Shown here one piece after another: positions 1 through 19,463 of a stretch of DNA of 64,000 bases (positions within the stretch are counted from its first letter, which is position 1; each line of letters starts with the position of its first letter). Position numbers and translations under genes: made by a program. Under the pieces are notes generated by a model that was not told where the DNA came from, searched no databases, and was given only the letters and a program-made list of their open reading frames with translations. This stretch comes from an uncultured Aminicenantes bacterium (lineage in GTDB: Bacteria; Acidobacteriota; Aminicenantia; UBA2199): assembly GCA_965195285.1 (NCBI GenBank), contig CBDAFS010000024.1:1-64000 (forward strand), read 5' to 3'.

Positions 1-176
1 TTGTATCATAACTCCTTAATTCTCTCTATTTCTGGAAATAAATAGAATGTTTCGGGTTCCAGCCTATTCCCAAAAACATTCGTGTTTTTAGGTTTTGAAA
101 AGACACCAATTTTACATTTGAATCGAACAGATGTCAAGCCAACGAATGATTGGGTTATTCCCGATGATATGCTACA

Positions 177-1070
177 ATGTCGCTTCCCATGAAACTGAAA
201 AGTACAATTTATCTGGTCATGTTTGCGGTTCTGGTGGCCATGGGTCATATTCTCCAGAAAATGGTTCTGAATTACGGGGTCAACCGTTTTGTATTTTCTT
301 TTCTTCGTATAACCTCCGGATTTGTGATCATAACCGGTCTGATTCTCTATAAGCGGTACCGACCCATTAAAGTCCTTAAAACCCATAGCCGGAATTTCAT
401 TGTGCTAGGTGTTTTTTTTTCAGGCTTTGGTATTTTGATTAAACTGTGGGGTCTGGGTTTTACCACGGCTACTAATGCGTCTTTCATCATGTCTCTATCC
501 TCTCTTTCCGCTGCTTTCTTTGCCTTTCTGTGGTTAAAGGAAAAGGCGCCTGCCCAATTCTATTGGGTGGTGTTGGCCATGATTGCCGGGGTGTATCTGG
601 TTACCACCAAGGGTAAACACCTTCTTCCGCAAAAAGGAGATCTGATTATTTTTGTTCTGGTTTTTTTAATCGGATTCATGCAGGTTTACGGCAAGCGAGT
701 ACTCAAGAATCTTTCGGTTCTGGAGACGGCCTTTGGCCGGTCTTTCTACGGGATGGTATTCCTGGGCCTGCTTATTCCCTTTTTTGCTCCCCACGGTTTT
801 TCCACGATTCCCAGTTTCAAGGTGCTGCTGATTGTTCTGGCCAATGGCATTACCTTCAGCGGCAGTATCATATTTTTCTATAAAGCACTTCAGCTTGAGG
901 GAGCCTCAAATTCGGGGGTTTTTGCTCTGCTGGTACCGGTAATCACCGCCATATTCGGTCGTTTGGTACTGGATGAGGTTCTGAATATCTATCAGATCAT
1001 CGGGGGGGTAATTATCATTGCCGGCAGTTTTTTCATCAGTCGTATGCGCATCAAACAGGCCAATTTTTAA
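177..1070 (+). CDS. DMT/EamA family transporter
   Basis: 297 aa, about 10 hydrophobic helices in two repeats; motifs TTATNASFI, WLKEK, GDL, LVPVITAIFG..L.E. Confidence 0.9.
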   Translation: MSLPMKLKSTIYLVMFAVLVAMGHILQKMVLNYGVNRFVFSFLRITSGFVIITGLILYKRYRPIKVLKTHSRNFIVLGVFFSGFGILIKLWGLGFTTATNASFIMSLSSLSAAFFAFLWLKEKAPAQFYWVVLAMIAGVYLVTTKGKHLLPQKGDLIIFVLVFLIGFMQVYGKRVLKNLSVLETAFGRSFYGMVFLGLLIPFFAPHGFSTIPSFKVLLIVLANGITFSGSIIFFYKALQLEGASNSGVFALLVPVITAIFGRLVLDEVLNIYQIIGGVIIIAGSFFISRMRIKQANF

Positions 1071-1207
1071 TATTTGTCAATCTTTGCTCTTTTTGATATG
1101 CTAAAAATGAGCGGGTGACATTTGAATCCCCGGTTATCTGTCGAGTGAATTCGATGAATATCATTTTATCTAAAAACTTAAACAACTGAATGGGTGATGG
1201 ATCCACC

Positions 1208-2050
1208 ATGAAATGGGTTGGTGCGCATGTCAGCGTGTCCGGCGGTATCGAACAGGCCCCCCTGAATGCACAGAAGATCGGGGCCAAGGCGTTCGCCCTT
1301 TTTACCAAAAATCAGCGACAATGGCATGCCAAGCCACTGACGGAGGAGAATATACGGTTATTTCAAACCCGTTGCCGGGAAGGGGGCTTCCAACCGGAAC
1401 AGATCCTGCCCCATGACAGTTACCTGATCAACCTGGGTAGCCCCGAAACCGCCATGCTGGAAAAATCCCGTGCCGCCTTTATTGACGAGATGCAGCGCTG
1501 TCATCAGCTGGGATTGAAATACCTGAACCTCCATCCCGGAAATCACAAGGACATGATGAGCGAACCCGAATGCATGAATACCATCGCGGAATCGATTAAC
1601 CTAGCGTTGGCCGCGGTACCCGAGGTCAGCGCTGTGCTCGAAAACACCGCGGGGCAGGGCAGCAGCGTGGGATACCGCTTCGAGCATCTCGCCTATATCA
1701 TTGAACGGATCCGGGATCAGAACCGAATAGGTGTCTGCTTCGATACCTGCCATGCCTTCGCATCTGGTTACGAACTGAGAGATTTTGAAAGCTACACTCA
1801 AACCATTAACGAATTTGACCGCATTATCGGATTCAGTCTACTGAAGGGGATGCACCTAAACGACGCCAAATCGAGCCACGCCAGCCGTGTCGACCGTCAT
1901 CACAGCATCGGAGAGGGTGAATTGGGTCTGGAACCATTCCGGTTCATCATGAATGACCCCCGGCTGGACGACATCCCCCTGATCCTGGAAACCATCGACG
2001 AAACCCTCTGGTCCGAGGAGATCCGCACCCTCTACGGGTTGATCGATTGA
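1208..2050 (+). CDS. nfo: Endonuclease IV (AP endonuclease family 2)
   Basis: [44 protein letters not shown] metal-binding motifs; ATG at 1208 (MKWVGAH) preferred over 1190. Confidence 0.97.
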
Positions 2051-2082
2051 TCGGTATACCTGGACACCAAGCTTGCCTATAA

Positions 2083-2126
2083 TGGGATCAAATCTTTATT
2101 GATTTGCAGACGAAGATTTAACCCCA
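2083..2126. repeat. Imperfect inverted repeat TGGGATCAAATCTT...AAGATTTAACCCCA, left boundary of the accessory island
   Basis: Arms at 2083-2096 and 2113-2126; the GGGATCAAATCTT arm recurs at 3412-3424 just after the asnA stop. Confidence 0.6.
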
Positions 2127-2169
2127 TTTCATTCCTAAATTATTGGGGGCTCCTTTTTATTTTTTCCTC

Positions 2170-2198
2170 TTGACAAGCTCAATTTTATTTTATATTAT
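2170..2198 (+). promoter_or_regulatory. Sigma70 promoter of the asnA leader
   Basis: TTGACA (2170-2175), 17 nt spacer, TATTAT (2193-2198); predicted start near the ATG at 2205. Confidence 0.75.
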
Positions 2199-2204
2199 GG
2201 CGGT

Positions 2205-2294
2205 ATGTTAACCATCTACAGATCGCCTGTAGAGCCAAGTCAGTTTTCCAACAACACCAATTATTTTTATAACCGGGCGGTTCTATCCGCCTGA
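2205..2294 (+). CDS. Putative Asn-sensing leader peptide MLTIYRSPVEPSQFSNNTNYFYNRAVLSA (29 aa)
   Basis: Translated by hand; four Asn codons in 8 codons (NNTNYFYN), directly upstream of asnA; hairpins at 2215-2233 and 2275-2292. Confidence 0.6.
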   Translation: MLTIYRSPVEPSQFSNNTNYFYNRAVLSA

Positions 2295-2363
2295 AAATTC
2301 ATATAACCCAATCCATCCCTTTTATCTCAAATTTAGTAATTCCTTATCTTAAGGAGGGTTCTT

Positions 2364-3401
2364 ATGAAAGACAAACATATTATTCCCGTGGGCTATTGCC
2401 CCTTGCTTGATGTGAACCAAACCGAAAAGGCCATCAAACAGATCAAAGACTTTTTTCAAACCACCCTGGCCACAGAACTCAACCTGACCCGGGTCACCGC
2501 ACCCCTTTTTGTTGAAGCGGGTAAGGGAATCAACGATGACCTCAATGGCGTTGAAAAACCAGTCTCTTTTTCCATTCGCTCAATGAACGGCACGCAGGCA
2601 GAGATTGTACAATCCCTGGCCAAATGGAAAAGATTAACACTGTTCAGTCTGGGTGTACAATATGGCCATGGCATCTACACAGACATGAATGCCATAAGGC
2701 CGGACGAAGTGCTGGACAATATTCACTCTCTCTACGTCGATCAATGGGATTGGGAGCGGGTAATATCAGATGAGGAGCGTACTCTGGATTTTCTCATCAC
2801 TGTAGTACGAAAAATATATGAGGTGTTAAAACGAACCGAATGGCACCTCCAGTCCCTTTATCCGCAAATCAAACCTCTACTTCCGGACCATATTCAATTT
2901 ATACATGCCGAAGAACTGGCCCATCTCTATCCTCAACTTCCGCCGCCAAAAAGGGAAGATCTGATCTGCAAGGAATACGGCGCTGTTTTCATCATCGGCA
3001 TTGGTGCACCCTTAAGCGATGGCCAGCCCCATGACAGCAGGGCTCCGGATTACGATGACTGGATATCCCCCACCGGAAAGGGGAAGGGCTTGAATGGTGA
3101 TATTCTTGTCTGGTACCCACTGCTTAACCGTGCCATGGAAATCTCCTCAATGGGGATCAGGGTTAATGCAGAATCACTGGAAAAACAACTGGAATTTACC
3201 CAAACAACCGAACGTAGAAACTTCTACTTCCACCAGAAACTTCTCGCTGGAGATTTACCTGATTCCATAGGCGGTGGAATCGGACAGTCCAGGTTGTGCA
3301 TCTTCTTCTTACGCAAGGCCCATATTGGAGAGATCCAGGTGAGTCTCTGGCCTATGGAAACGATTGCAGAATTTAAAAAACACAATGTGACCATACTCTG
3401 A
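2364..3401 (+). CDS. asnA: Aspartate--ammonia ligase (asparagine synthetase A)
   Basis: EIVQSLAKWKR, MNAIRPDE, HSLYVDQWDWE, RAPDYDDW, LNGDI, SSMGIRV, SIGGGIGQSR; SD AAGGAGG. Confidence 0.98.
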   Translation: MKDKHIIPVGYCPLLDVNQTEKAIKQIKDFFQTTLATELNLTRVTAPLFVEAGKGINDDLNGVEKPVSFSIRSMNGTQAEIVQSLAKWKRLTLFSLGVQYGHGIYTDMNAIRPDEVLDNIHSLYVDQWDWERVISDEERTLDFLITVVRKIYEVLKRTEWHLQSLYPQIKPLLPDHIQFIHAEELAHLYPQLPPPKREDLICKEYGAVFIIGIGAPLSDGQPHDSRAPDYDDWISPTGKGKGLNGDILVWYPLLNRAMEISSMGIRVNAESLEKQLEFTQTTERRNFYFHQKLLAGDLPDSIGGGIGQSRLCIFFLRKAHIGEIQVSLWPMETIAEFKKHNVTIL

Positions 3402-3524
3402 AAATAATAAAGGGATCAAATCTTCGTATTACTGTTACTTTTTCTTTATGATTGTATGTAAACGAGACTTTATTTTGGATATTGCCACATCCCATCCCTT
3501 TTTTAAAAAAATTAATAAATTAAC

Positions 3525-3964
3525 AATCCGTCCCCAGATATAGAAAAAACATCCTGTTTAATAAATGGGATGTGTCCCTATTTAATTTTTATAGGTGCAT
3601 TAATTTATTTTCATTATCGATCTTTATCTTATTTGGATTTTCTTTATCTTCATCCCATTTTGATGAATTATTCCTTACAATTCGGGGGACACCATACTTA
3701 ACTTTTCAAATATGGCTTATCCAAGGACATTATAATCGAATAATTTGGTATGATGTCCCTATAATTTATAAACAATAGAAAAAAATCAAAATTCCAAAAG
3801 ACCGTCCCCAACCCTTGTTTCGAATTTCGGATTTAGTGCTTCGAATTTAGTCTTATCTTAATGCCATTCGTCGCTGTCCCTATTTTTTTTAAATTGGAGA
3901 ATCAATACTTAAAAGACCGTCCTCTTTTCGGTTTTCAGTTGCAACGTTTCAACCTACCGTCCCC
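3525..3964. repeat. Cluster of stacked GTCCC(C) end motifs and re-used blocks
   Basis: CCGTCCCC 3528-3535, GTGTCCC 3572-3578, AAAGACCGTCCCC 3797-3809, GCTGTCCC near 3873-3880, AACCTACCGTCCCC 3951-3964; blocks duplicated at 7174, 9159, 9251, 10677, 10787. Confidence 0.75.
3677..3767. repeat. About 90-bp MITE-like element with terminal inverted repeats (AATTCGGGGGACACCATAC / GTATGATGTCCCTATAATT), copy 1
   Basis: Near-identical second copy at 10677-10766. Confidence 0.75.
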
Positions 3965-3973
3965 AACCCTGCA

Positions 3974-4002
3974 TTGACATAAAATTATTTCCCCTCTAAA
4001 AT
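3974..4002 (+). promoter_or_regulatory. Sigma70 promoter of the terpenoid gene pair
   Basis: TTGACA (3974-3979), 17 nt, TAAAAT (3997-4002), about 10 nt inside the CCGTCCCC junction. Confidence 0.65.
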
Positions 4003-4063
4003 ATCATTTCAGGAAAAACGAATTTTCCTATGTTGTTTACGGTTATGGAGATAGCCAAATGAT

Positions 4064-6304
4064 TTGATAAAAAGCCTATACATGGAAAAGACGGTAAAAA
4101 AAATTTACGGCAAAAATAAAAGCGCAATTGTTTTTCCCCGCGATTACAGTGTCCACCCAGAAACTGAAAGTGAGTCGTGGTATACTTTTGCCTTTTTGGA
4201 TAACCGTTATACATTCATAAGCTACTTTTGGCGCTTTAGGGCAAAGAGATGGAGGGAGGACGGCCTCATTTGTATATATGCCCTTACTGAGATAGACGGC
4301 ACGAAGCGATGGAATGCGTCTTTGATCAATAAAAAAATGCTGTCTATGACAAGGGATATGCTGAAAAGGATAACCGTTAAGCACAAGGATATCATTGTAG
4401 AAGCTTTTCTTGAAGTTACAGATGACAACACAGTCTTTGCGCCGTATCGCTTGGCAAAAGAGGCGTATTGTGCGTCAACGGGGAATCATCCGGTAGATAT
4501 GAGAGTGGGTCCCTGCCAATTTTTGCATGATGCCGAAAACAAGTCTCTTCACATACGCATAAAGGATCGTGAATTACAGGGCGATATAAATCTTGATATA
4601 TCGGGCAACTGCCTGCCAATGGCAGAAAACGGATCGTTTGAAATCGGAGGCAGGAAAATTCAGGGATATAGCCATCCGCAGGTAAAAGCTACGGGGACGA
4701 TAACCACCGGAGACCACAGCCGGCAATTTTCAGGAAAGGCATGGTGCGATCATCAATGGGGTGAATGGTTCTTTTATGATTTTAATAAGAAATATTACCA
4801 CCCGATGAGAAACTATTTCGGTATTTTTTTCGACGGCAATAAAAACATTGTCCTATGCCAGGATAAAAAACCAGCCAAGGGAGGATTTAAGAAAGAATTA
4901 GTATACGGGCTCCTCCTTAATAATAATGGATCATCCAAACTTATTAACAAAGTAAATATAAAATGTAAGGATTATGAAGAGAGCCTGCGGACAAACAACC
5001 TTTACGAATATGGCTGGCTAATCGATCTGCCGGAATTTAACTATAGCTTTGAAGTAACACCTTTTCATCCCGATCACGAGATATTCACGCTTACTCGGCA
5101 ACGTGGAGTGATGGAACTTGGCTGCCGTGTAAAAGGAAACCTGGACGGAGTAAAATGCGAGGGGGTTGCTTTTGCGGAGATTTACGGAGAGGTGCTTGAC
5201 ATCAATGATTTTTTCTGGGGGCAGAAGAAAACAAATCTTTCCAGACAGCTTGGAAAATTTATGCCTCGTAGCTACGACCAGGATTGGTTTAAAAAGATCT
5301 GCGGAATGAATAGGCCGCTGATAGCTGACAAAAGTGCCCTTACCCACGCAATTATAGATCCTATCTGGTCTATGATGGATCGCGGAGGTAAAGGATGGCG
5401 TGCCGCCTGGCTTATAACTTGTTGCTATGCATTGGGCCTTAATAAGTTTGTACGGGAATTACGCAGCTTTATGCCGATTAGCGAGTTGATTCATACCGGC
5501 AGCCTTGTTATAGATGATATTCAGGATATGTCAGAATTACGGAGAGGCAAGCCGACATTGCATAGATTGATAGGAACGGATCTGGCCATCAATGTAGGCA
5601 ATATCCTATATTTCTTGCCGTACATCATAATAAAAGAAGCTTCCTGGCTTACCGAGGCCCAGAGATTAGAGATATATAACATTATAACGAATGCCATGCG
5701 CCAAGGGCATATCGGGCAGGCCATGGATTTAATGTCCTCGAAGGGGCGTTATGATTTCGAAAACAAGGCCGCTATGTTTGATAAAACACGGGAAGAGCTG
5801 GTAGAGCAGTACAGGCTTAAATCAGGGTGCCAGCTTCATGCGATCGCAGAGATAGCGGGGGCGATTACTCTCTCTCCAAAATCTCTTGTTGAACCTCTGG
5901 CTTCATATTCATCTACCTTTGGCGTTGTTTTCCAGATAGTGGATGACCTTATAGATATTCAAGAATCCAAGGACAAGTTAGGAAAAGAAGAGAAAGAGGA
6001 TATACGAAACTGCAAGCTTAATATGGTGCTTCTTTATGCCTTATCGGAAATGAACGGCCCTAAACGAGCATCTTTCATAGAACTCATTTTAAATGCAAAT
6101 AACAAGAAAGACAATGACCGCATATCAGAGATTATTCACGGCACAGATGCCATAGACAGATGTATTGCCTTTGCCGAAAAGATGATTGAAGATGCATGGA
6201 AGGGCGTGAGCAATTTTCCCGCTACGGATGCGAAAGTGGCCATGAGAGCAATTCCCAGATGGCTTATCAATCAACGTAAAGAGAAAGCGGCATTAAGCTC
6301 ATAA
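4064..6304 (+). CDS. Fusion: CrtC/AttH lipocalin-like domain plus trans-isoprenyl diphosphate synthase
   Basis: N-half: FPRDYSVHP..ESWY, GKAWCDHQWG, C-terminal G..G.AFAEIYG. C-half: GGKGWR, FARM HTGSLVIDDIQD..LRRGKPT, GQAMDL, SARM FQIVDDLID. True start may be the ATG at 4082. Confidence 0.85.
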   Translation: MIKSLYMEKTVKKIYGKNKSAIVFPRDYSVHPETESESWYTFAFLDNRYTFISYFWRFRAKRWREDGLICIYALTEIDGTKRWNASLINKKMLSMTRDMLKRITVKHKDIIVEAFLEVTDDNTVFAPYRLAKEAYCASTGNHPVDMRVGPCQFLHDAENKSLHIRIKDRELQGDINLDISGNCLPMAENGSFEIGGRKIQGYSHPQVKATGTITTGDHSRQFSGKAWCDHQWGEWFFYDFNKKYYHPMRNYFGIFFDGNKNIVLCQDKKPAKGGFKKELVYGLLLNNNGSSKLINKVNIKCKDYEESLRTNNLYEYGWLIDLPEFNYSFEVTPFHPDHEIFTLTRQRGVMELGCRVKGNLDGVKCEGVAFAEIYGEVLDINDFFWGQKKTNLSRQLGKFMPRSYDQDWFKKICGMNRPLIADKSALTHAIIDPIWSMMDRGGKGWRAAWLITCCYALGLNKFVRELRSFMPISELIHTGSLVIDDIQDMSELRRGKPTLHRLIGTDLAINVGNILYFLPYIIIKEASWLTEAQRLEIYNIITNAMRQGHIGQAMDLMSSKGRYDFENKAAMFDKTREELVEQYRLKSGCQLHAIAEIAGAITLSPKSLVEPLASYSSTFGVVFQIVDDLIDIQESKDKLGKEEKEDIRNCKLNMVLLYALSEMNGPKRASFIELILNANNKKDNDRISEIIHGTDAIDRCIAFAEKMIEDAWKGVSNFPATDAKVAMRAIPRWLINQRKEKAALSS

Positions 6305-7011
6305 TGATTCAGTTTATAACGCACTATATTTATTTAACGTTAAGCCTTGTGCTTCTTTTAACGGCAGCAATAGGATATGGCCTTTTAGCGGATCAGCGAC
6401 GTGCAATGATGATTTCCGCGCTTATGTCCGCACCCTGGGCGTTTGCCTCAATTGTATTTGTTCCGGATTATTGGAATCCAGTAAGGATTGCATGTTTTCT
6501 GACTGGTCCGGAAGATATTATTTTCTCTTTCGCAAACGGTGTGATCGTCTGGGCGGTCGCAGTTCTACCATTAAGAGGGAAGATCGCAATTAACATAAAC
6601 TTGCGCCGTATGCTGAAAAGGGCCTGCCTGCTTTCATTATTGGGTTTTGTTATTACGATGTCATTATGGTTTTTTGGGCTAAAGATAATAACGGCTGTAG
6701 TTATTAGCGTGAGCGTTACCACGGCTCTGCTTTTCTTTTGGCTATGCCGCGATTTTAGAATTTTATGCGTATGGGGAGCTATAGGGTTTACGATTTTATA
6801 TGGTATTTTGATATGTATGGGCATAATGTTTTTTCCGCATTTTTTAAAACAGTGGAATCTGGCGAATCTATCCGGTATACTGATATTTAATGTACCTATA
6901 GAAGAATTTATCTGGGCATTTGTATTCGGAGCTTGTTGGCCGCTCTACATAGCGTATATACTTGACGCGAAAAGAACTGATAATATCTTGGGTGTCAGGT
7001 CTAAAGAATAA
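6304..7011 (+). CDS. Membrane protein with tandem lycopene cyclase (CrtYc/d, CarR-type) domains
   Basis: About 7 TM helices; two repeats YWNP...GPEDIIFSF and WNL..LSGILIFNVPIEEFIWAF (PIEE motif); TAATG stop/start overlap with upstream gene. Confidence 0.75.
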   Translation: MIQFITHYIYLTLSLVLLLTAAIGYGLLADQRRAMMISALMSAPWAFASIVFVPDYWNPVRIACFLTGPEDIIFSFANGVIVWAVAVLPLRGKIAININLRRMLKRACLLSLLGFVITMSLWFFGLKIITAVVISVSVTTALLFFWLCRDFRILCVWGAIGFTILYGILICMGIMFFPHFLKQWNLANLSGILIFNVPIEEFIWAFVFGACWPLYIAYILDAKRTDNILGVRSKE

Positions 7012-7457
7012 AGACGATTAGGGACGGTCGTTGCTTTCTTGATTTCTTCAAACATTTCCTTAACCGAATAGAGAGGGAGGATTGGATTATTCATTCCCTT
7101 GCGTGGGTAAAATCAACAAAATTGGGGACGGTGGGTGCAAATTTCCAGGTTTGAATATACTATTCCCATTCCTTTTAAATTGGAGAATCAATACTTCAAA
7201 GGACCGTTCCCTTTTTTTCTCATATTCACCCCATCTCCCTACAAAACACTTCGGGTTTTACACACTGTCAATGATTTGAAATGCTCGTTGGTGCAATCAA
7301 GCACCGTTCTCCCTCTTTTATATAATGCTAAAATGAAAGACCTGACCCTCTTAATTCAGAGATATTTTGTTGTGGATCATTGGGAGATCAAACACGATTT
7401 CCCAAAATAAAAAAAATTAGTCTACCTGATTGACATTAACCTTCTAATGGGCGTCCC
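6990..7457. repeat. Second cluster of GGGAC/GTCCC and GACCTGACCC motifs
   Basis: GGGTGTCAGGTCT 6990-7002, TAGGGACGGTC 7019, GGGGACGGTGG 7124, GGACCGTTCCC 7201, AAAGACCTGACCCT 7336-7349, AATGGGCGTCCC 7446-7457. Confidence 0.7.
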
Positions 7458-7476
7458 TTTTATCTTTAGTCCCGGC

Positions 7477-8361
7477 TTAAATTGTGATTACTGCTCCGAT
7501 CTTCCACACACTTCTTTCCCGAAAAGCAGGAATTGTCTGTCTTCGTGCAAGGTTGATCAGTGAGTTTAGAGATTTTTCACTTGATTTTGCATATTCCGAA
7601 AGAGTGATGATTGATTCACCCTTAAGATATGAAATCCGTTTATGTAACGATTCAAATGATGCAAGTACGATAATTTTCTCCATAGTTTTTGTGTTTTTGG
7701 AATCATTGTATTCACGAAATGATTGATAGTAAATCTTCTTTTCCTTATCTCTGATTATTAAATTCGGGAATCCGAGCTTATTTAGCTGAAAATTAACAAT
7801 AACTCTTCCTATTCTCCCATTTCCATCTAAAAAAGGGTGGATTGTTTCAAAATCCAGATGAAATTTTGCAATTTTATCTATCGGGTAATCATCAATATTA
7901 CTTTCATACTCCGATAAAATAGCATCAACCATTCTTTCGACATGTTCCGGAGGTGGTGCAATATGTGAACCGACACGGACATATTCGTTTTTCGTTCTAA
8001 AGCGTCCTGCAATATTATCATTGATATTTTCTATTAGCATCTTGTGAACCAGAAGTATTGTTTCTGACGTTAAGGATAGCTCGTTTTTTTTAAGTTCAAA
8101 ATATTCCATCACGCGGGCAAGATTTTTAGCTTCAAAGATCTCCCGGACAGAAACATTTCGGGACACTTCTTTGTTAAGAAGGATTTTTTCCGTTTCCTTA
8201 AGGGTAAGAGTTGAATTTTCTATTGCATTCGAATTGAATACACTCTCTGAAAGTTCCGCTTCGTTAATAATTTTAAGCAGTGATTCTTTCCCTGTGGAAA
8301 ATCGATTGTATTCAGTTCCCAATATTTTTATTCTTTCTCTTATATGATTGGAAGTTGTCAT
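7477..8361 (-). CDS. Class II Fic (AMPylase) protein with C-terminal HTH-like domain
   Basis: Canonical HPFLDGNGRIGR; N-terminal inhibitory motif SNAIEN; C-terminal ITLSEYAK...LINLARRQTIPAFR...W. Confidence 0.93.
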   Translation of the reverse strand: MTTSNHIRERIKILGTEYNRFSTGKESLLKIINEAELSESVFNSNAIENSTLTLKETEKILLNKEVSRNVSVREIFEAKNLARVMEYFELKKNELSLTSETILLVHKMLIENINDNIAGRFRTKNEYVRVGSHIAPPPEHVERMVDAILSEYESNIDDYPIDKIAKFHLDFETIHPFLDGNGRIGRVIVNFQLNKLGFPNLIIRDKEKKIYYQSFREYNDSKNTKTMEKIIVLASFESLHKRISYLKGESIITLSEYAKSSEKSLNSLINLARRQTIPAFRERSVWKIGAVITI

Positions 8362-8367
8362 GAATAT

Positions 8368-8435
8368 ACTGTACTATATTAACGCTATTTTGTCAAATAT
8401 TCGTTAATATGTTCGATTTTACAACCATATTAACG
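8368..8435 (-). promoter_or_regulatory. fic promoter with three ATATTAACG operator-like boxes
   Basis: Minus-strand TTGACA (8396-8391), 17 nt, TACAGT (8373-8368); 9-mer at 8376-8384, inverted at 8402-8410, direct at 8427-8435. Confidence 0.6.
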
Positions 8436-8492
8436 GTTTTTCAGATTTGTTCGATATTCTTCTTTTTCCTTTTCACTTGTTACTCTGACTCT

Positions 8493-8518
8493 GGGCAGGA
8501 GTAAACCCAGCCCCTACA
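8493..8518 (-). repeat. GTAG-family REP-like hairpin
   Basis: Minus strand reads TGTAGGGGCTGGGTTTACTCCTGCCC: GTAG tetranucleotide followed by an imperfect GGGC...GCCC stem. Confidence 0.6.
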
Positions 8519-8640
8519 ACCTCTGTCCTGTTTTGACATTTCAACGTTTCAACACTTCAACTTCTAAACTCAGCACTCAAAACTTCTGAAATGTGTCAAC
8601 TTTTAAAAAGTTTTCAAGATTTCAGCAACCGTCCACTTTT

Positions 8641-8806
8641 TCTGCCTTCCAGATGGTTGAAACTGTCGGCCTCTCCAACGACGACGATTTCGGGGCTTAT
8701 AGCATTCACTCTCGTCATTAAATGCCACTTAGATAACGGGCTGCTGGCCAGGCTTTGCCCGTGAGGGATTTTAACCCTCTGGATAACACCAGCTTACTTG
8801 GTGCAC
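8641..8806 (-). mobile_element. Degenerate 5' (domain I) fragment of a group II intron
   Basis: Minus strand begins GTGCACCAAGTAAGCTGGTGTTATCCAGAGGGTTAAAATCCCTCACGGGCAAAGCCTGGCCAGCAGCCC and ends ...GCCGAC...GGAAGGCAG, resembling bacterial group II intron 5' ends; no RT ORF or domain V nearby. Confidence 0.6.
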
Positions 8807-8892
8807 TCAAGCACCGATACACTATTTACACTTTTTTATCTTAAGGAAAAAAATGAGGTATATAAATACAAGAATACAAGCACCGTCACCCC

Positions 8893-9080
8893 TTTTTTAT
8901 TCAGTAACCAATTGTACAACCGTTCAATTCATTTTTGATTATTTAGATCTTGGGACACAATTCATTTGGACGTTTAATGGCAATGCTACCTCTGACACCA
9001 ATATGAGCGGTACAGGCAGCTACTATAATGACTGGAGTGGTACCACATTGAGTCTTACCTGGACAGCCACAAAAACTTAA
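8893..9080 (+). pseudogene. 3' fragment of a secreted beta-strand-rich protein gene
   Basis: Protein-like C-terminus (WTFNGNATSDTNMSGTG...TWTATKT*) starts right after the CAAGCACCGTCACCCC junction (8877-8892); no credible native start. Confidence 0.4.
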
Positions 9081-9106
9081 TATATTCAAGCTTTTTCAGG
9101 TTTCAA

Positions 9107-9326
9107 TGCGCCATCCCCACTCCCTTTTCTACACTTATTCGCACCGAGTACGGTTTTTTTTAAATTGAAGAATCAATACTTCAAAGGACCGTCCCTCTTT
9201 TTTTCTTTTTTAATAATTTTAAAAAATTAAAACCCCGTCCCCGGATTTTACAGTTGCAACGTTTCAACCTACCGTTCCCATTTTTTTGTTTAGCGTACCT
9301 TTTTGTCCGAATCGTGAGTTGACCCC
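9107..9326. repeat. Third cluster of GTCCC/GACCCC motifs
   Basis: AAAGGACCGTCCCT 9183-9196, CCGTCCCC 9235-9242, 25-bp block 9251-9275 identical to 3936-3960, GAGTTGACCCC 9316-9326. Confidence 0.7.
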
Positions 9327-9331
9327 AACTA

Positions 9332-10627
9332 TTACTTCAGGTTAAACAATTCACGCTTCTCCAGGGTCACGTTTATTCTCTTACCTTCCCGATCAATGTC
9401 TACCTCAAGGGCATTGCTGTCTCCCACCAACAAATTCGGTTGGAAAAAATATCTGCAATACTGCTCTAATGTCAATGGGCAAAGATTTTTTCTATTTATT
9501 GCCACAATCTTATCGCCTACTTTTATACCGGCGTCCGAGGCGGAAGAGTTTTCATATAAAGAGTTAACATACAGGTATTGGCCTTCTTTGTGATAGCCGA
9601 ACCAAAACCCAAAGGTATCTATGCCAACCTGGGGGCCGTAATCCGGCGGCACTGTCACCAGGATGTACTTATCTGCCCAATTTAATGTAAACACAGAATT
9701 TTTAAATAATTCGGTACCTACTTTGGGTTCGATGTTTTTCACAAAATCGACGGTACCGACATTCGGTTTCCACTCACCAATCTTCAGATCCTTTGTTTTT
9801 ATGGTATAAGCGGTCCCCACCTTCGTTCCCAGGGCTCCACCGGATACTTCACCATACCGTTTTATATAGGAAACGTCCGGATTTGATTTTCGGAGGGTCT
9901 CCCATTGCTTTATACTACCGGTAAGCCCACCGGTAGAACCTGAATCCACACTAAAGGACATCTCCCTGTGTCCGGCTATTGCAACCTTGATAACCGGGAT
10001 GCGTTGGATATTGGGATTGAAAGGTATCTTATAGTTATTTTCCGAATTAGTTCCCAGGTTCCGATCGTCCGTAATGACCATTTTCTGCTCTGGAAAATCG
10101 ATTTGCCATACGGGTGCCAATCGAATTAGATTCATCCCGATTACTCCATCGGCGGCATAACATGTTATATTCGGTGTTTCCACCAAGTCAAGGATTGCCG
10201 CCGCGGTATTGGAAAAATGGAGGCCTCCGATTCCTATATCTTTAATTTTAACAAATTGGAGCTTTCGGCGTCTCCGGGTGGTATCGGAGATACTGCTTTC
10301 TGCTTTCGTCTTAAGCCCGAACTCAACAGCGATTTCACTGGAAATCACATTGAAGGATGCGCCGGTATCAAAAATAAATCGATAGGTTTTGTCGGCGCCG
10401 TTGATTTTAACTGGAATAAACAACAATCCTCTGCGGAACGTACAGTTGACCTCGCTTCTAAAATTTTGTTGTTCAAACTTGCCGCTCAAGAAAAGCGGAC
10501 CCATTTTTACAATGGTGCATCCGTACATGACGAAAACGGTTCCCAATAGAGCGGATAACCTGATCACCGACACTCTTTTGTTCTTAAAATATCGTTTAAA
10601 ACTATAGGAAATTCCTTTTTTAATCAT
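9332..10627 (-). CDS. Double retropepsin-like aspartyl protease with C-terminal PDZ domain (probable lipoprotein)
   Basis: FIFDTGAS and FSVDSGS catalytic motifs, DGVIG, PDZ SSASDAGIKVGDKIVAIN; hydrophobic stretch ending MYGC. Confidence 0.88.
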   Translation of the reverse strand: MIKKGISYSFKRYFKNKRVSVIRLSALLGTVFVMYGCTIVKMGPLFLSGKFEQQNFRSEVNCTFRRGLLFIPVKINGADKTYRFIFDTGASFNVISSEIAVEFGLKTKAESSISDTTRRRRKLQFVKIKDIGIGGLHFSNTAAAILDLVETPNITCYAADGVIGMNLIRLAPVWQIDFPEQKMVITDDRNLGTNSENNYKIPFNPNIQRIPVIKVAIAGHREMSFSVDSGSTGGLTGSIKQWETLRKSNPDVSYIKRYGEVSGGALGTKVGTAYTIKTKDLKIGEWKPNVGTVDFVKNIEPKVGTELFKNSVFTLNWADKYILVTVPPDYGPQVGIDTFGFWFGYHKEGQYLYVNSLYENSSASDAGIKVGDKIVAINRKNLCPLTLEQYCRYFFQPNLLVGDSNALEVDIDREGKRINVTLEKRELFNLK

Positions 10628-10676
10628 ATAGAAATATTAATGATATGGATGTTAAATGTCAATGGATTGTGGTTTA

Positions 10677-10825
10677 ACAATTCGGGGGGCACCATACTTA
10701 ATTTTTCAAATATGGCTTATCCAAGGACATTATAATCGAATAATTAGGTATGATATACCTATAATTAGTCCCCCTTTTGCATATATAAAAAACATCCTGT
10801 TAAATAAATGGGATGTGTCCCTATT
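10677..10825. repeat. Copy 2 of the 90-bp element plus a copy of the 3545-3583 block
   Basis: 10677-10766 matches 3677-3767; AAAAACATCCTGTT..ATAAATGGGATGTGTCCCTATTT at about 10787-10825 matches about 3545-3583. Confidence 0.8.
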
Positions 10826-11061
10826 TTAATTTTGATCTTCATCGCTCAATAGAGAGTAGCCAACCATATCAAATAGAATAATATCTGTTGTATGAGTTTC
10901 AATTCGGATTTTATTACTCATTTTTTCATCCGTTTATATTGTATTATATTTTTTTAAATTTATTAGAAATATTTTTCATTTTCATTCTTATATAATTAAA
11001 TTTTAGGAAATATAATAAAGTAATAAACATTAATGAATACCATTTCATACCCTTTTATCAA

Positions 11062-14000
11062 TCAAAACAATTTCCCTTTAGAATATTTTTCAATTACATC
11101 CTCCAAAACATAAAGATTTTCACTAAGAAGATTAATAGCTTGATCGCGATCTTTGGTCTTAAGGTACCTATTTACAAATTTGAATATTTCATCAATATCC
11201 AATTTCGGGAAAAGTTTCTTAAAATTCTCCTTATAAACAGTGTATTTATTGTAGAATTCATAAAATAAAGCTTTTATTTCTTTATATATTTTAATATTTA
11301 AATCGAGTATTTTATTATGCAATTTATCAAGAAAATAATTATTTATATCTTTCTTGATTAGTCCTTCTTGCTTTTTCCAGACATATAGAGAGACGAGGCA
11401 CTCAAATAAATCATTTTTAAAGGAGAGTTCTTTATACTCTTTTGGCTCTTTCTTAGGTAGAATAGATATAATATCTTCTGGTATTTTTTGGGGTACTAAA
11501 GATTCCCATGAAATGTTTTCTTCATCAAATAATGAGCTTATTCTATATCCACCTTCGATAATTAGGTTGTCCTTAAATAATGGTATCAGGTAATAAAATG
11601 AAGGTTTATATTTAATTTTCGTTAATAATGGTAATAATTCTCCAAGGTTCGCCTCAGGAAAAACCAGATTATCTACAGTAAAATACAATGGTAAATATGA
11701 TAAAGGAAATTCAATAAAAACACGTTCAGCAACAATAGTATTTCTGTCATATAGAATTCTATTTACATCGTGTATAATCTTTTTATGAAATAATTCTTTA
11801 TTATATTTAATTTTTTCTTTATAGTCATAGATAGGAATTTTTTTCCAGTTATAAATATAGAATTCAAATAAATCAATTAATTTATTAGAAAGATTAATTT
11901 CCTTTTCTTTAAGCTCTAATAATCCGAAATAATCCATTGAGATAGATGAAACTAAATCAAAACCAACATATAAATCAGGTAGATGTTTTCGGTAATCTTT
12001 TAAATTATGTAATGCCAGTTTTCCAATATCTTCTTTTTTTTCTCGTTTAAAATATTCAAAAAATTGAAACATGAAATTTCTAAAATGTATTTGAGATTTC
12101 TGAATGTTTTTTTTGAAGCTTTCTTCTATTTCCTTTTTAGTCTGCAAAGGTGGTTTTTCTGAAACTGTATCAAGCAATCCAACAATTTCTACTGTCAAAT
12201 CTCCTCTATCAAACGCTTTATGAAAATCATATTTCTTACCTTGGATTATTTTTTTAAAACCAGTGTTCATGATTGACAAGAATTGAATTATTTTTTCTCT
12301 GAGTGTGTAATGATCTTTCTGAAATATATAGTAACTATCTGGAGAATAAGCATTTTCAATAATATCAAGCCACATTCTATTAAGATGTGCATAAAATCCA
12401 AGAGGCATATTTTCAGCAGGAATTCTTTTTTCAGTATCTTTGATTGATGGCTCGAGATCAAATGGTAGTATATTAATAGCATGAGAAGAATATTTTGAAC
12501 AAAACGGCAAAGCTTCTCTATATTTTTCAAGCCTGCTCATGGCCTGCTCATTAGGGGATAAACCATTATTTAACTGAATAAAATTAATAGTCAGTTCATT
12601 ATTCTCAATTACCAGATCAAGCGAATCTGTTTTATATTGTAAAAAGCTATGAAAATCATCATGACATTGATTGTACCATTTAAAGAATTCGTTCTTGTCA
12701 TATTCATAAAGTCCTGAAATCAACTTATATAGTGCCTTCTCATTATATTTCTCAAAATTTTTGACCTCTTTGAATTGCTCTGAAAAAAAGGAAGTATCAA
12801 TTTTTATTCCAGCAAATTTTAGCCAGTAAAATATGTCGCGAGCATTTAACAATGAATCTTTTTCAAACTTGTTGATTATCTTTTTTGTATCGATTAATTC
12901 AGCAAATATTCGACACAGCTCATTACCTCTGGGCTCTCTACTAATTTTAGATAAAATAATTTTAAGTTTTTCTATGGTCTCATTATTTTTAATATTTTCT
13001 AAACTATCAATAGCATTAATCATATTTGTTGGAGTTGTACTCATTCCCAATAAGGAAACTCCGGAATGTCCCTTTAAATCAAAGGCTTCATCAAAATTCA
13101 CCTTGTTCTTCTTAAAAAAGCACTGTTCTCCGCCCAGGAATAGACCTTTAAAGATTTGTTCTATCACTTTTAGCGAATTATTCCCAATATTAGAATTTAG
13201 ATTATTCATGATTTCATAGTTATCTATATCATCATGAATAATGCAATTTGATATATAATAGGCCAAATTATTTTCAGGAATAAGGGCTAATAATTTCACA
13301 GCTGTTTCTGTTAAACTATAAATTTGTCTGTGTAGCAAACTAACTAAATGTTGTGACCTAACCCAGTGTAGTCCCTGCAAAACACCATCTTTTATCTCAA
13401 TGTACTCATCTTTTAAAGAATCAAAAATATGCTTAGGATCAGTCTTAAAAGAGATATGTTGTAATATTTTTTTTATAGTAACTGTAGAGTTAAGAAAATC
13501 AGCTGTTGATATAAGACGCAATATTTCAATTTTTGTTTTATCTTCACTTAATTCAGAAATTTGTTTTATTTGTCTATCAAGCCGTTCTTTCAGCATTTCA
13601 CCATGAGTTAGCAAATAGACATATTCCATTAGTAAGTGAGGTTCGTCCATTCTCTCAAAAGCCCATTGATATGAAACAACATTATCATGAATTCTATTTT
13701 GTTTTGAAAATGTATCATAGATTTCTTTAGCTTCTTTTAAATCAAGATCAGGTTGAATGATCTCATAATTGGATACATTGGGATTACTGAAACGAAACCA
13801 ATCTTCATGACGAATCGTCACTAAAACTCTTATTCCCATTTCTGAGCAAAATCCGGTAACTTCTGGCCATAAGGCTGTTTGAAAATCTGCATTATCTATT
13901 AAAAGAAGAATTGGAAAATTAAACTTTTTTATATATTTAAGAAAATCTTTTACCAGTTCGACCTCTTTTGAGGTTTGGACTGATTTTAAAATATAAATAT

Positions 14001-14937
14001 ATTTTTCATCCCAAAAATCATGAGCATATCGATAAAGAAGAGAAGATTTACCCTGGCCGCTTGATGCCCTGATAATACAAACGTTGGCACCATTAATACC
14101 TTTGTCAATTTTATCTAACCATTTATTCCTTAATATATCAAGTTGTAATTCTATATGTCCAGAGCGAACTTTTTTGCCATCATAAAAATCATCAGGATTA
14201 GCATCTTTTTGCCATTCTAACTTTGACATCAATCCATCTCCGATAGCAGAGAATTCCTTCTGTCTTGTGATATTCTCACTCAAATCTTTCCATATTTCAT
14301 CCAGTAAAATTTTAGTAATAAATTCCCTTTTTTCCGCTTTATTTAAAAAAAGTGCAAATAATGAATCGATGAAAATCTCTGCCATTTTATTAGAAGAAAT
14401 ATTGAAAAGGTTTAGCAAAATCTTATTTAGGGAGGTCAAGAGTTCCTCTTCATTAATCGTAATTAAATTAATATTTTTATAAAATGTTGAGTCAGTTATT
14501 CCAATATCATTATTTATCTTTCTAACTTTGTTTTCTATTCGAGCCTTATTTTTAGCTTGAAATTGAATATTTTCTGTTAACATTAACCAGTCATTGTTGT
14601 GATGAAAATTTGTAACTAGAATAAATTGTGATTTATTGTCTAAAGAATATGTTTCAAAAAATGATTTAAATACTTCCGTATATTTAGCCCAATTCCAACA
14701 AGTTTCAGATGTTTTTACCTGAATGTATTTATTATTTGATTGTAATCCTTTTAGATCTAAATCTTCTATTCCTTCAAGATGTATCTGAAAATCTGGATTT
14801 ATCGTATATTCTTCAAACGCTTTATAAATAGAATATAAAATTTGATAACGGATACCTTTAATATTTACAGAGCCATGAAAGCGTGCTTTTATAATACTAT
14901 CAAGAGAAGGATATTTTTTATACCTATTTTTTTTCAT
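11062..14937 (-). CDS. Putative anti-phage protein: N-terminal PD-(D/E)xK (Cap4-like) nuclease, STAND-like P-loop NTPase, long helical C-terminus
   Basis: KGIRYQ...EGIEDLD...YIQVKT nuclease pattern; Walker A ASSGQGKS; Walker B LLLIDN; VLVTIR; very AT-rich. Confidence 0.7.
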   Translation of the reverse strand: MKKNRYKKYPSLDSIIKARFHGSVNIKGIRYQILYSIYKAFEEYTINPDFQIHLEGIEDLDLKGLQSNNKYIQVKTSETCWNWAKYTEVFKSFFETYSLDNKSQFILVTNFHHNNDWLMLTENIQFQAKNKARIENKVRKINNDIGITDSTFYKNINLITINEEELLTSLNKILLNLFNISSNKMAEIFIDSLFALFLNKAEKREFITKILLDEIWKDLSENITRQKEFSAIGDGLMSKLEWQKDANPDDFYDGKKVRSGHIELQLDILRNKWLDKIDKGINGANVCIIRASSGQGKSSLLYRYAHDFWDEKYIYILKSVQTSKEVELVKDFLKYIKKFNFPILLLIDNADFQTALWPEVTGFCSEMGIRVLVTIRHEDWFRFSNPNVSNYEIIQPDLDLKEAKEIYDTFSKQNRIHDNVVSYQWAFERMDEPHLLMEYVYLLTHGEMLKERLDRQIKQISELSEDKTKIEILRLISTADFLNSTVTIKKILQHISFKTDPKHIFDSLKDEYIEIKDGVLQGLHWVRSQHLVSLLHRQIYSLTETAVKLLALIPENNLAYYISNCIIHDDIDNYEIMNNLNSNIGNNSLKVIEQIFKGLFLGGEQCFFKKNKVNFDEAFDLKGHSGVSLLGMSTTPTNMINAIDSLENIKNNETIEKLKIILSKISREPRGNELCRIFAELIDTKKIINKFEKDSLLNARDIFYWLKFAGIKIDTSFFSEQFKEVKNFEKYNEKALYKLISGLYEYDKNEFFKWYNQCHDDFHSFLQYKTDSLDLVIENNELTINFIQLNNGLSPNEQAMSRLEKYREALPFCSKYSSHAINILPFDLEPSIKDTEKRIPAENMPLGFYAHLNRMWLDIIENAYSPDSYYIFQKDHYTLREKIIQFLSIMNTGFKKIIQGKKYDFHKAFDRGDLTVEIVGLLDTVSEKPPLQTKKEIEESFKKNIQKSQIHFRNFMFQFFEYFKREKKEDIGKLALHNLKDYRKHLPDLYVGFDLVSSISMDYFGLLELKEKEINLSNKLIDLFEFYIYNWKKIPIYDYKEKIKYNKELFHKKIIHDVNRILYDRNTIVAERVFIEFPLSYLPLYFTVDNLVFPEANLGELLPLLTKIKYKPSFYYLIPLFKDNLIIEGGYRISSLFDEENISWESLVPQKIPEDIISILPKKEPKEYKELSFKNDLFECLVSLYVWKKQEGLIKKDINNYFLDKLHNKILDLNIKIYKEIKALFYEFYNKYTVYKENFKKLFPKLDIDEIFKFVNRYLKTKDRDQAINLLSENLYVLEDVIEKYSKGKLF

Positions 14938-14969
14938 TATTGAAATCTTCTAAAGTATGTAAGTTCTTC

Positions 14970-16667
14970 TTACCTACTCTCTTTCTCAACAATCTTAATC
15001 TCATCCTTGGTTAATCCATACAATTCATAAACCAGTTGGTCGATCCGGTTATCTAAAATATCAATCTGTTTTTTGAACATTATTTTTTCATTTTCAGTCT
15101 TGGCATTATGATATTTTTTTTGAATTCCAAGCATTTGTTCAACCATTTCAACCATTTTGTTGTATTTGTTCTTTTCTTTTTGATTCTCAAAGTTTAGTTC
15201 TGGAATTGGAAGTAGACTCATATATTGCCGTTTCCATCTAAAAAATCCTCCTCTAATTTCAGAACTAATCATTGAAAACATAAATGTATATAATTTAGAA
15301 TTTAGAATACCTAAAAGATATTTTGAAGAAGTTCCAAGTATATATGCAGTCATATCACAATATAAATGGTTTACATCCAATGTGAATTGTCCTTTGGTGG
15401 CGATTTCAGAATAAATTATTTTTGGTTTTTCAAATTCCGAATAATAATCACAAGCTCGTAACTCCCACCAATAATCTCCCTTATCCGTTCTTTTTTTTGC
15501 AGCATTGAAAAAAGGATGTATATAATATGCAATAGCAGGATAATTCTTTTTAAACCACAGCCATGCTTCTCTATTGTTTTTGCAATGCTTTAGTGTCCAT
15601 CCTTTAGGTATAAATATTAGATATTTTTCACTCTTTGGTGTTTTATATCTTTTTATATCTCTTCCAAAAAGAAATGGTTTGATGAGTTCATCATTTTTAG
15701 GATTTTTAGCTATTAGTCTTTTGCGGGTTTCTGAGTCTATAACAAATGCTTTATTCAAACCTGTTTTAAGTCCAATATAGATCTTCTTCTTAACATATTC
15801 TATAAAAGGTTTTCCTTGAACTTTAAATTTGTTAAAAAGTAACTGTTTTTTTTCATCAATCAGTGTCCAACCATTATCATTAAGATAATTTGATTTAACA
15901 AAAAAACTTTTTTTTATTATATATTCTTTAAGATTTAAAGCATAAAGACTTTCCACAATAGTAGCTTTGAAATAATTTTTTCTTTCATAATTTGAAATTA
16001 AAAGGATACATGGATACGTGGATACATTCTGAAATACAGGTAAGTCACCAAAGTCTATAATTTCTAATATATTTTTTTGTTTGAGAAATTTCCTTAATTG
16101 TTCACCATATCCCGCCCTCATCCATTTATTGGCGACTATAATCCCAAAATATCCACCTTGTTTCAATATATTTAGTCCCTTTTCAATAAAAAAAACATAT
16201 ATATCTGCAATGCCATTATAGACTTTATAATGAGTTTCAAAATAATTTTTATATTCTCCCAGCATCTCTTGACGAACATACGGGGGATTGCCGATTATTA
16301 TGTCGAAGCCGCCTTGGGTGAAGATGTCGGGGAATTCTTGGGGCCAGTCAAAGACATTTATTCTGCGGGTGGTTTCTTCGTCCTGGAAGAGATTCATCTG
16401 GCCGGTATCGTAGAAGTCGGATCCGATCAGGGAATTGCCGCACTTGACCTTGCCCTTGATCTCGACCCGGTCTTCTCTCACCACATCCCGGTACTGCTCG
16501 GAATATCCGTTTTTGTTGTAAACATCCCAGCCCAAGAGCTCGAAGAATTTGTCGATGAAATCGGCCCGGGCCTTGGCCTCATCGTAATGTTTTCCCTTAT
16601 ACTGCTTGAGGTTGTGTTGAAAAAGATCGATTAATTTTTTTAGTTTAGTAATATTTTCTTGTTCCAA
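14970..16667 (-). pseudogene. Internally deleted type IIG (Eco57I/TaqI-like) restriction-modification gene
   Basis: Type IIG N-terminus (YDEAKARADFIDKFFELLGWDV..VVRED) joined in frame to KCGNSLIG, GFDIIIGNPPY and a TaqI-C-like TRD; no nuclease PD..EAK and no SAM-binding DPACGSG. Confidence 0.75.
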
Positions 16668-16701
16668 TGTTAAATAATATCTCTCCTTTTTTACAAATTT
16701 A

Positions 16702-16730
16702 ATAATAAAGAACTATTACATTCTTGTCAA
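16702..16730 (-). promoter_or_regulatory. Sigma70 promoter of the MTase-remnant/nuclease-NTPase pair
   Basis: TTGACA (16730-16725), 17 nt, TATTAT (16707-16702); AAAGGAGAG SD at about 16689-16681. Confidence 0.65.
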
Positions 16731-16776
16731 TTAAATTCCGGAATTTATCTTCTCGCGTCGTCATAAATCACATTTT

Positions 16777-16997
16777 AAATCCGAAATCCGAATATCTAAA
16801 TCCCAAACAAATTCAAATGACCAAAATCATAATGATCAAAACAATATCACAAATAATGACCTTTATTCATGGGCAAACCGCTAATCTGTCTTCTAACTCC
16901 TGACTTCTATCTACTGAGCTAAGCTTATTTTTATTTTGAATTTTAATCATTGGGATTTCGTGCTTGTTTCGAATTTAGTGCTTCGTGCTTCGAATTT
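16777..16997. repeat. Inverted pair of degenerate heptamer tandem arrays
   Basis: AAATCCG-AAATCCG-AATATCT-AAATCCC... (about 16777-16842) versus ...TTCGAAT-TTAGTGC-TTCGTGC-TTCGAAT (about 16935-16997); half copy at 3815-3848. Confidence 0.65.
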
Positions 16998-17152
16998 CAA
17001 CTGAGGGAAGGTCAATTACCGGACGGGTGAACGATACATGAACTGCTTCCAATTATTTTTATGAAGACTGAATACTTTCCATTTTACAGTTGACATATTA
17101 TACTTTATTACATAAAATTTCTTCTTGGTAATTCAAAAAAAAGGGAGGATTT

Positions 17153-19396: not shown

Positions 19397-19463
19397 CCAA
19401 TCAATATGGTTGAATTTATTCCGGTTTTGGTGTAAAAGTTTATCTTAAAAGAGGAGGTGAAAT

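Follow-up and report, generated by a model that had tools for sequence, protein, structure and literature searches.

A double-barrel and prenyl synthase fusion with a membrane partner in an uncultured Aminicenantes bacterium: candidates for a non-carotenoid isoprenoid pathway

This article concerns two overlapping genes at positions 4064 to 7011 of a 64,000-nucleotide stretch of DNA from an uncultured Aminicenantes bacterium (GenBank assembly GCA_965195285.1, contig CBDAFS010000024.1, positions 1 to 64,000; hereafter the window). Gene 1 encodes an AttH/CrtC-type double barrel joined to a probable type III-like geranylgeranyl diphosphate (GGPP) synthase, and gene 2 a small membrane protein of the lycopene cyclase domain family PF18916. 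The reading we favor, to which we give about even chances, is that GGPP would be made and its C20 chain then either hydrated or closed into an end ring, in a reaction started by protonation, to yield a non-carotenoid isoprenoid lipid. The domains themselves are known; the architecture that combines them is widespread and apparently undescribed.

The two genes and their products

The argument depends on the following features.

4064..6304, + strand: gene 1, a type III-like GGPP synthase behind an AttH/CrtC double barrel in one protein of 746 amino acids (open reading frame list, Pfam, homologues, AlphaFold)
4151..5191, + strand: AttH/CrtC double-barrel domain, about residues 30-376, with candidate acid D229 in W-C-D-H-Q (4742-4756)
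5201..6283, + strand: isoprenyl diphosphate synthase domain, with the first aspartate-rich motif (FARM) at 5513-5527, the second (SARM) at 5942-5956, and chain-length residues Y516, F517, and H549
6304..7011, + strand: gene 2, seven-helix PF18916 (lycopene cyclase domain) membrane protein, 235 amino acids
6508-6516 and 6895-6906, + strand: acidic motifs P-E-D and P-I-E-E of gene 2, one in each half

The original prediction, made from the letters alone, held that a CrtC/AttH-type barrel is fused to an isoprenyl diphosphate synthase, and this is confirmed by Pfam, AlphaFold, and Foldseek. Pfam finds CrtC (residues 120-234, E 1.4e-9), Lipocalin_9 (residues 251-342, E 4e-5, below the curated cut-off), and polyprenyl_synt (residues 431-690, E 4e-47) in the gene 1 protein; NCBIfam has no model that matches the product of either gene above cut-off. 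The AlphaFold model, built with 132 sequences (predicted local distance difference test score, pLDDT, 92.8), places a beta double barrel before a helical synthase. Foldseek returns AttH NE1406 and kievitone hydratase as the top matches to this model, with isoprenyl diphosphate synthases next, and the barrel is of the duplicated lipocalin-like kind (2ICH, E 2e-15; 7A0T, E 1e-12).

Gene 1 is more likely to start at ATG 4082 than at TTG 4064, as its two closest homologues start with MEKT. Around the earlier start (4047-4067) there is also a GGAG whose spacing fits ATG 4059 best; that frame runs for two codons, its stop overlaps TTG 4064, and it is possibly a frameshifted former start or a coupling mini-frame. 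At the other end of the gene, TAATG at 6302-6306 forms the overlap with gene 2 on the same strand and, judged from this arrangement, gene 2 is translationally coupled to gene 1, as had been predicted.

Both DDxxD motifs of the synthase domain are intact, again as predicted. The FARM reads HTGSLVI-DDIQD (aspartates D484, D485, and D488, with G479 at -5 and S480 at -4) and the SARM reads DDLID (D627 and D628). In an alignment of the window protein with 131 further full-length proteins (660-815 amino acids) from word and profile searches, FARM, SARM, RR, and K586 vary little or not at all across the 132 rows; the FARM is strictly invariant, as is E339 of the barrel. The chain-length residues are kept almost as well: Y516 in 126/132, F517 in 125/132, and H549 in 131/132. 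By FARM spacing and by alignment with the prenyltransferase domain of PvCPS, they correspond to Y107, F108, and H139 of yeast GGPP synthase, which halt elongation at C20 according to the available text of PMC9729869 (citing Chang 2006). The top PDB match of the stretch that carries them is that same PvCPS domain, and the top match of the whole synthase domain is the Pyrococcus GGPP synthase. Because all three type III residues are kept, GGPP is the likely product, and we consider the C-terminal domain to be probably a type III-like GGPP synthase; on a tree it lies far from CrtE. The small residues at -4/-5 had suggested a type III GGPP or a longer-chain synthase, and the former part of that suggestion stands, but a longer-chain (C25 or above) enzyme is made unlikely by Y516, F517, and H549.

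The gene 2 protein has seven hydrophobic helices by hydropathy (the gene 1 protein has none) and a single Pfam match, Lycopene_cyc, in its C-terminal half (residues 133-217, E 3.8e-8). It was originally described as a tandem of lycopene cyclase domains; the helices and two acidic motifs agree with this, but Pfam recognizes one copy only. E70 is invariant and E201 nearly invariant among its homologues, of which 17 are close relatives. The N-terminal half reads GPED, in which the P-x-E spacing is absent and E70 and D71 are kept, and the C-terminal half has PIEE; PxE(E/D) is given as the CrtYcd signature in the available part of PMC12016392. The protein is placed in large PF18916 Atlas clusters (0.95-0.96), with a recognition value under the threshold of the tool, and aligns with an operonic Thermus CrtYcd, the single comparator, over 15 columns of the PxEE stretch only (E 0.014).

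Fold searches revealed no clear relative for gene 2. Foldseek returned nothing at E<=0.001 for its model, and the top result of a VIA fold search was a lipid-binding Insig homologue at Z 8.8, which is within the chance range for helical bundles. Complex prediction for the barrel domain and the gene 2 protein scored 0.00 in two runs, and we use this result neither way.

The fusion family and its neighborhoods

The fusion is far from restricted to the window. A word search with gene 1 (3874 candidates) gave 28 relatives and one weak fungal match, and in a profile search most of the best 150 clusters listed (50% identity) span both domains. Among 80 GTDB loci, the best of 583 confirmed stretches from one scan, 74 carry the fusion (two split between frames, three truncated at contig ends) and six a stand-alone synthase. 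A FastTree of the synthase domain resolves three groups: clade A (the window and locus L001), clade B (24 loci), and clade C (49 loci); for the 27 closest homologues, locus context covers L001 only. Hosts include Acidobacteriota (Aminicenantes among them), Bacteroidota, Myxococcota, Cyanobacteria, Actinomycetota, Planctomycetota, Omnitrophota, and two Thermoplasmata. Where the proteins are labeled in databases at all, it is as "polyprenyl synthetase" or similar. Since intact copies occur in named strains (Flavobacterium defluvii DSM 17963, Membranihabitans, and Tolypothrix PCC 7601), the family is directly testable.

Of the 15 phage records found, none carries the fusion or covers 80%, and those listed, 10 in number, align with the synthase half alone. 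Some further observations concern membership of the family. The six stand-alone synthases (L013, L017, L020, L026, L066, and L070) come mostly from Candidate Phyla Radiation (CPR) bacteria and DPANN-type archaea, and four of them adjoin idi. Three loci titled Enterobacteriaceae or Enterobacterales (L050, L052, and L059) cluster within the Myxococcota fusions, and their labels may be wrong. One fusion protein, P0130, has a weak N-terminal match to a PX domain (E 0.001), which hints at a eukaryotic member.

A profile of 71 barrel domains recovers NE1406 (E 5e-45) and kievitone hydratase (E 1e-17). For CrtC itself, the acid is proposed to be D268 (RgCrtC numbering), and the cation-stabilizing residues W110, W283, and W285 are required, as described in the available portions of PMC4717167 and PMC12402844. 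We mapped this catalytic set to residues 38, 229, 249, and 251 of the window protein through an operonic CrtC, relying on the spacing of motifs and on an alignment that is weak (E 0.03) and in which D229 falls on the Y-F-D motif. Of 69 GTDB fusions from clades B and C, 67 have the resulting W-D-W-W set intact; among protein rows from outside clade A it is intact in 74 of the 100 free of gaps (eight gapped rows dropped). NE1406 carries the same motifs. In clade A the typical set is W-D-W-Y, with three aromatics and the acid kept in 15 of 20 gap-free rows (four dropped). Because W-D-W-W is kept so widely but the window protein has S-D-R-Y, the barrel appears, in the family at large, to be a working acid catalyst and the window copy may be impaired, or altered in its chemistry. 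R249 is common to the window protein and its two near relatives.

The membrane partner is a much rarer companion. A gene 2 homologue lies directly downstream of the fusion in four of the 74 loci (L001, L004, L016, and L018, the last with two copies), which belong to two clades. When loci with at least 400 bases downstream are compared, it is found in 4/23 of clades A and B and 0/43 of clade C (Fisher p 0.012, kinship ignored). One 631-residue protein, P0192, joins the membrane domain to a canonical AttH barrel, and is the sole such match among 8000 longer candidates. The proposal that the two genes form a unit is thus partly upheld, in that the gene order recurs in four other genomes and P0192 fuses the membrane domain to AttH, but an obligate two-gene cassette is ruled out. 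Because the partner adjoins only 4/74 loci, we treat the fusion as the core unit.

With respect to gene neighborhoods, 236 of about 790 neighboring open reading frames were scanned with Pfam, nearest first. Export genes (MMPL, LolA-like, or FtsX/ATP-binding cassette (ABC)) stand beside 12/74 loci, GT1/GT28-type glycosyltransferases beside 4/74, and mevalonate genes beside 3/74; many other fusions have unrelated neighbors. N-terminal sulfotransferase and/or glycosyltransferase domains are fused in five of 23 scanned proteins, mostly longer ones. The richest examples include a Spirosoma cluster (L080:9086-19222) with the fusion, an LMF1-like protein, an FkbM methyltransferase, GT28, two P450s, and GT2, in which no cyclase was recognized among the genes scanned; by its gene content it is a candidate diterpenoid glycoside pathway. 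On a plasmid of Tolypothrix PCC 7601 (L081:9094-13623) a single 1509-residue protein combines sulfotransferase, glycosyltransferase, AttH, and GGPP synthase domains near DevC/ABC export genes and cysC. At L005 the fusion is found with hydroxymethylglutaryl-CoA (HMG-CoA) synthase, UbiA, and a geranylgeranyl-reductase-like gene.

Other neighbors recur as well. A conserved membrane protein of about 590 residues flanks the fusion at L045:11873-13645 and in about nine more loci from Myxococcota; it has no Pfam or NCBIfam match and by eye resembles a GT-C glycosyltransferase. An unassigned 200-residue protein is a second recurring companion there. In three Aminicenantes loci (L010:4578-5585, L012:2398-3387, and L053:616-1566) a protein of about 330 residues adjoins the fusion; it bears an acidic motif of the DDxxD type and by eye resembles a class I terpene synthase, but matches nothing in Pfam, NCBIfam, or the PDB.

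Proposed chemistry and its alternatives

The pathway that we favor would run as follows. The C-terminal domain, going by its intact motifs, would likely make GGPP. In most of the family the equivalent of D229 in the barrel would then, by homology, protonate the geranylgeranyl chain at its terminal trisubstituted double bond and add water, and the resulting tertiary alcohol could be glycosylated, sulfated, methylated, or oxidized by partner genes and exported. The weakest step applies to the minority of lineages with a PF18916 protein, including that of the window: here glutamates of the membrane protein may protonate the chain end within the membrane and form an end ring, a reaction that CrtYcd carries out on lycopene and that would here take place on a C20 chain. 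In the window lineage, with two pocket tryptophans lost and tyrosine for the third, the barrel may serve in binding or hand-off, or its chemistry may have changed, and the membrane protein would be the likelier main modifier. The two-gene unit holds neither a phosphatase nor an acceptor transferase.

Relatives of the barrel are consistent with such chemistry. CrtC, kievitone hydratase, and the archaeal hydroxy-glycerol dialkyl glycerol tetraether (GDGT) synthase hydrate isoprene double bonds to tertiary alcohols (PMC4717167 and bioRxiv 10.1101/2025.10.20.683597, as far as the available text of each goes); the last of these is an AttH protein that acts on tetraether lipids, according to the same preprint. 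In the available part of PMC12402844, CrtC is reported to accept free C12-C20 terpenes, with geranylgeraniol at 4%. We also count the tailoring partners (glycosyltransferases, sulfotransferases, and P450s) in favor of this pathway, as they would need a hydroxyl or a scaffold. The wide retention of W-D-W-W, the export-type neighbors of 12/74 loci, the membrane gene downstream of fusions from two clades, and P0192 count for it too.

It is important to set out what weighs against it. The mapping from CrtC rests on motif spacing and the weak alignment (E 0.03) rather than structural superposition, and H239 of CrtC has no counterpart, there being no histidine at the aligned position. The window barrel has S38, R249, and Y251 where most of the family has tryptophan, and in L001, the sole other clade A locus with context, the set is eroded further. 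No membrane gene adjoins 70 of the 74 fusions (64 of the 74 had at least 700 bases downstream), and two of three plasmid homologues of gene 2 (Methylophaga and Burkholderia thailandensis) have no annotated terpenoid pathway gene alongside. Finally, the locus counts describe a best-scoring subset from a single scan, and the search for crtB covered the loci and the window, not whole genomes.

One alternative is a scattered carotenoid pathway, in which the fusion would provide GGPP together with carotenoid 1,2-hydratase activity, the membrane protein would be an ordinary CrtYcd, and crtB and crtI would lie elsewhere in the genome. All three domains bear Pfam names from carotenoid synthesis, the C-terminal PxEE of gene 2 is a CrtYcd signature (PMC12016392, in its available part), and a crtI-like gene stands two genes upstream of the fusion in L014. 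However, three crtB queries that detect one another found no crtB in the 80 loci (1.23 Mb) or in the 64 kb window, the crtI-like gene of L014 was the only one that crtI queries found (1/74), and neither crtI nor crtD queries matched within the window. The original statement that the window has no phytoene synthase or desaturase is therefore upheld, and fusion loci do not, as a rule, lie in crt clusters. Genes of the gene 2 type were found in a crt operon in none of eight contexts (the window, four GTDB loci, and three plasmids), operonic CrtC (E 0.03) and operonic Thermus CrtYcd (E 0.014) can barely be aligned with these families, and the synthase is type III-like and distant from CrtE. We give the carotenoid pathway little credence. 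The predicted non-carotenoid cyclic or hydrated terpenoid, made directly from a prenyl chain, agrees with this setting and can be refined to C20, but the pair is not obligate (4/74).

Lipid handling is a further alternative, and we think it rather unlikely. Here GGPP synthesis would be the sole chemistry, and the barrel and membrane protein would bind the product and pass it to exporters or membrane-lipid enzymes. Homologues of NE1406 are linked with transporters of the ABC/LolD kind, and a role in lipid transport has been proposed for them (available text of PMC2954199), export-type genes neighbor 12/74 loci, pocket tryptophans are lost in the window lineage, and the gene 2 model has the Insig homologue as its top fold match, albeit in the chance range. 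On the other hand, W-D-W-W is kept in 67/69 fusions outside clade A (though NE1406 shows the same motifs), E70 in the membrane protein does not vary and E201 hardly varies, and the fused or adjacent glycosyltransferases and sulfotransferases need a hydroxyl that GGPP does not have, which speaks against handling alone.

Two other possibilities keep modification of the chain. A UbiA-type enzyme encoded elsewhere could move GGPP to an aromatic ring or glycerol phosphate before the chain is hydrated or cyclized, to give a meroterpenoid or hydroxylated ether lipid; we hold this to be distinctly improbable. In its favor are the homologue of gene 2 on an Ilyobacter plasmid, which forms a two-gene unit with a UbiA prenyltransferase, the gene content of L005, the two Thermoplasmata hosts, and the fact that kievitone hydratase and hydroxy-GDGT synthase work on attached prenyl chains (for the latter, the same preprint in its available part); UbiA stands, however, beside only 1/74 loci among the 236 neighbors scanned, and none was recognized among the window genes scanned. 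Alternatively, and we judge this unlikely, the fusion would be a one-polypeptide diterpene synthase whose GGPP synthase feeds a lipocalin-fold, proton-initiated cyclase, with a PF18916 diterpene cyclase having taken over in the window lineage and the scaffold decorated by P450s and by glycosyl-, methyl-, and sulfotransferases across many phyla.

Flanking DNA and known systems

The DNA around the gene pair has the following features.

3974..4002, + strand: sigma70-like promoter candidate TTGACA-17-TAAAAT, 11/12, the top-scoring site within 3380-7500
3801 and 3956 (span 3801..3963), + strand: upstream copies of the motif ACCGTCCC, within longer repeats common to neighboring intergenic regions
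7021 and 7125 (span 7021..7132), - strand: inverted downstream copies of ACCGTCCC

The pair was originally proposed to move as a self-contained cassette with its own promoter. A promoter candidate is present, but promoter-like sites overall are no more frequent than chance predicts (10 observed, 12.3 expected); no terminator-like site was found within 3380-7500, and an Rfam scan of positions 1-20000 of the window gave no match. For mobility there is no direct sign, only atypical codon use and short flanking repeats. Of 20 genes compared, these two fit the codon use of the window worst, scoring -0.02 and -0.06 where the others range from 0.00 to 0.10, while their GC content is similar. The motif ACCGTCCC occurs five times where 1.1 are expected, all at 3.8-9.2 kb and inverted across the gene pair. 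The flanks do not align as long terminal repeats, and no recombinases are among the flanking genes scanned. Such a pattern suggests acquisition of the pair into a variable region, not a self-mobile unit.

Repeats of 34-90 nucleotides (81-94% identity) are common to the intergenic regions 3498-3965, 7165-7320, 8798-9286, and 10677-10836, which separate the terpenoid pair, a Fic gene, an aspartyl-protease/PDZ gene, and a low-GC block. This block (11062-16667, - strand, 28-32% GC) holds a 1291-residue protein with no NCBIfam match and an adenine methyltransferase-like gene that, by eye, is without the middle part of a type IIG enzyme; the block is possibly a defense island.

A literature search on the fusion, or on its pairing with a membrane protein, found no description, with subscription journals largely outside its coverage. 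A link to tolypodiol was considered and set aside, as it points to a Pyr4-like cyclase and not to the fusion family. Pyr4-like cyclases (XiaH, TylF, and ZigF) resemble gene 2 by description, being small membrane proteins in which an acidic residue starts cyclization (PMC13307353, in its available part), whereas gene 2 has no Pfam or NCBIfam match to such families and the two-gene unit has no epoxidase or UbiA. CrtYcd lycopene beta-cyclase shares PF18916, a length of about 230 residues, two halves with acidic motifs, and the C-terminal PxEE, but in the gene 2 family the N-terminal motif is x-[PLIV]-E-D.

The barrel shares its double-barrel fold with CrtC, kievitone hydratase, AttH NE1406, and hydroxy-GDGT synthase, as well as the aromatic-x-Asp and W-x-W motifs across most of the family. 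It differs from this group in being attached to its presumed substrate supplier and in standing nearer to NE1406 than to CrtC; in comparison with CrtC it lacks a counterpart of H239, carries S38, R249, and Y251 in the window copy, and has no crtD or crtB nearby. Similarly, the synthase shares with type III GGPP synthases (yeast Bts1, human GGPP synthase, and the PvCPS prenyltransferase domain) the DDxxD FARM, the small -4/-5 residues, the Y-F pair, and H-x-G-Q, but is prokaryotic and fused behind a double barrel. From the fusion one would predict C20 isoprenoid lipids or glycosides of an unrecognized family, whose synthesis uses no oxygen-dependent hydroxylation, and in AttH barrels and PF18916 membrane proteins two enzyme folds may have been extended to diterpene chemistry.

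The closest parallel in overall design is with the fungal chimeric synthases (PvCPS and variediene synthase), in which a C-terminal GGPP synthase is likewise joined to a domain that may process its product. In the fusion, however, this partner is a beta double barrel by AlphaFold model and Foldseek, rather than one of the helical cyclase folds (class I or II). If the diterpene synthase reading is true, the fusion would be a prokaryotic counterpart of these chimeras, built on an unrelated fold.

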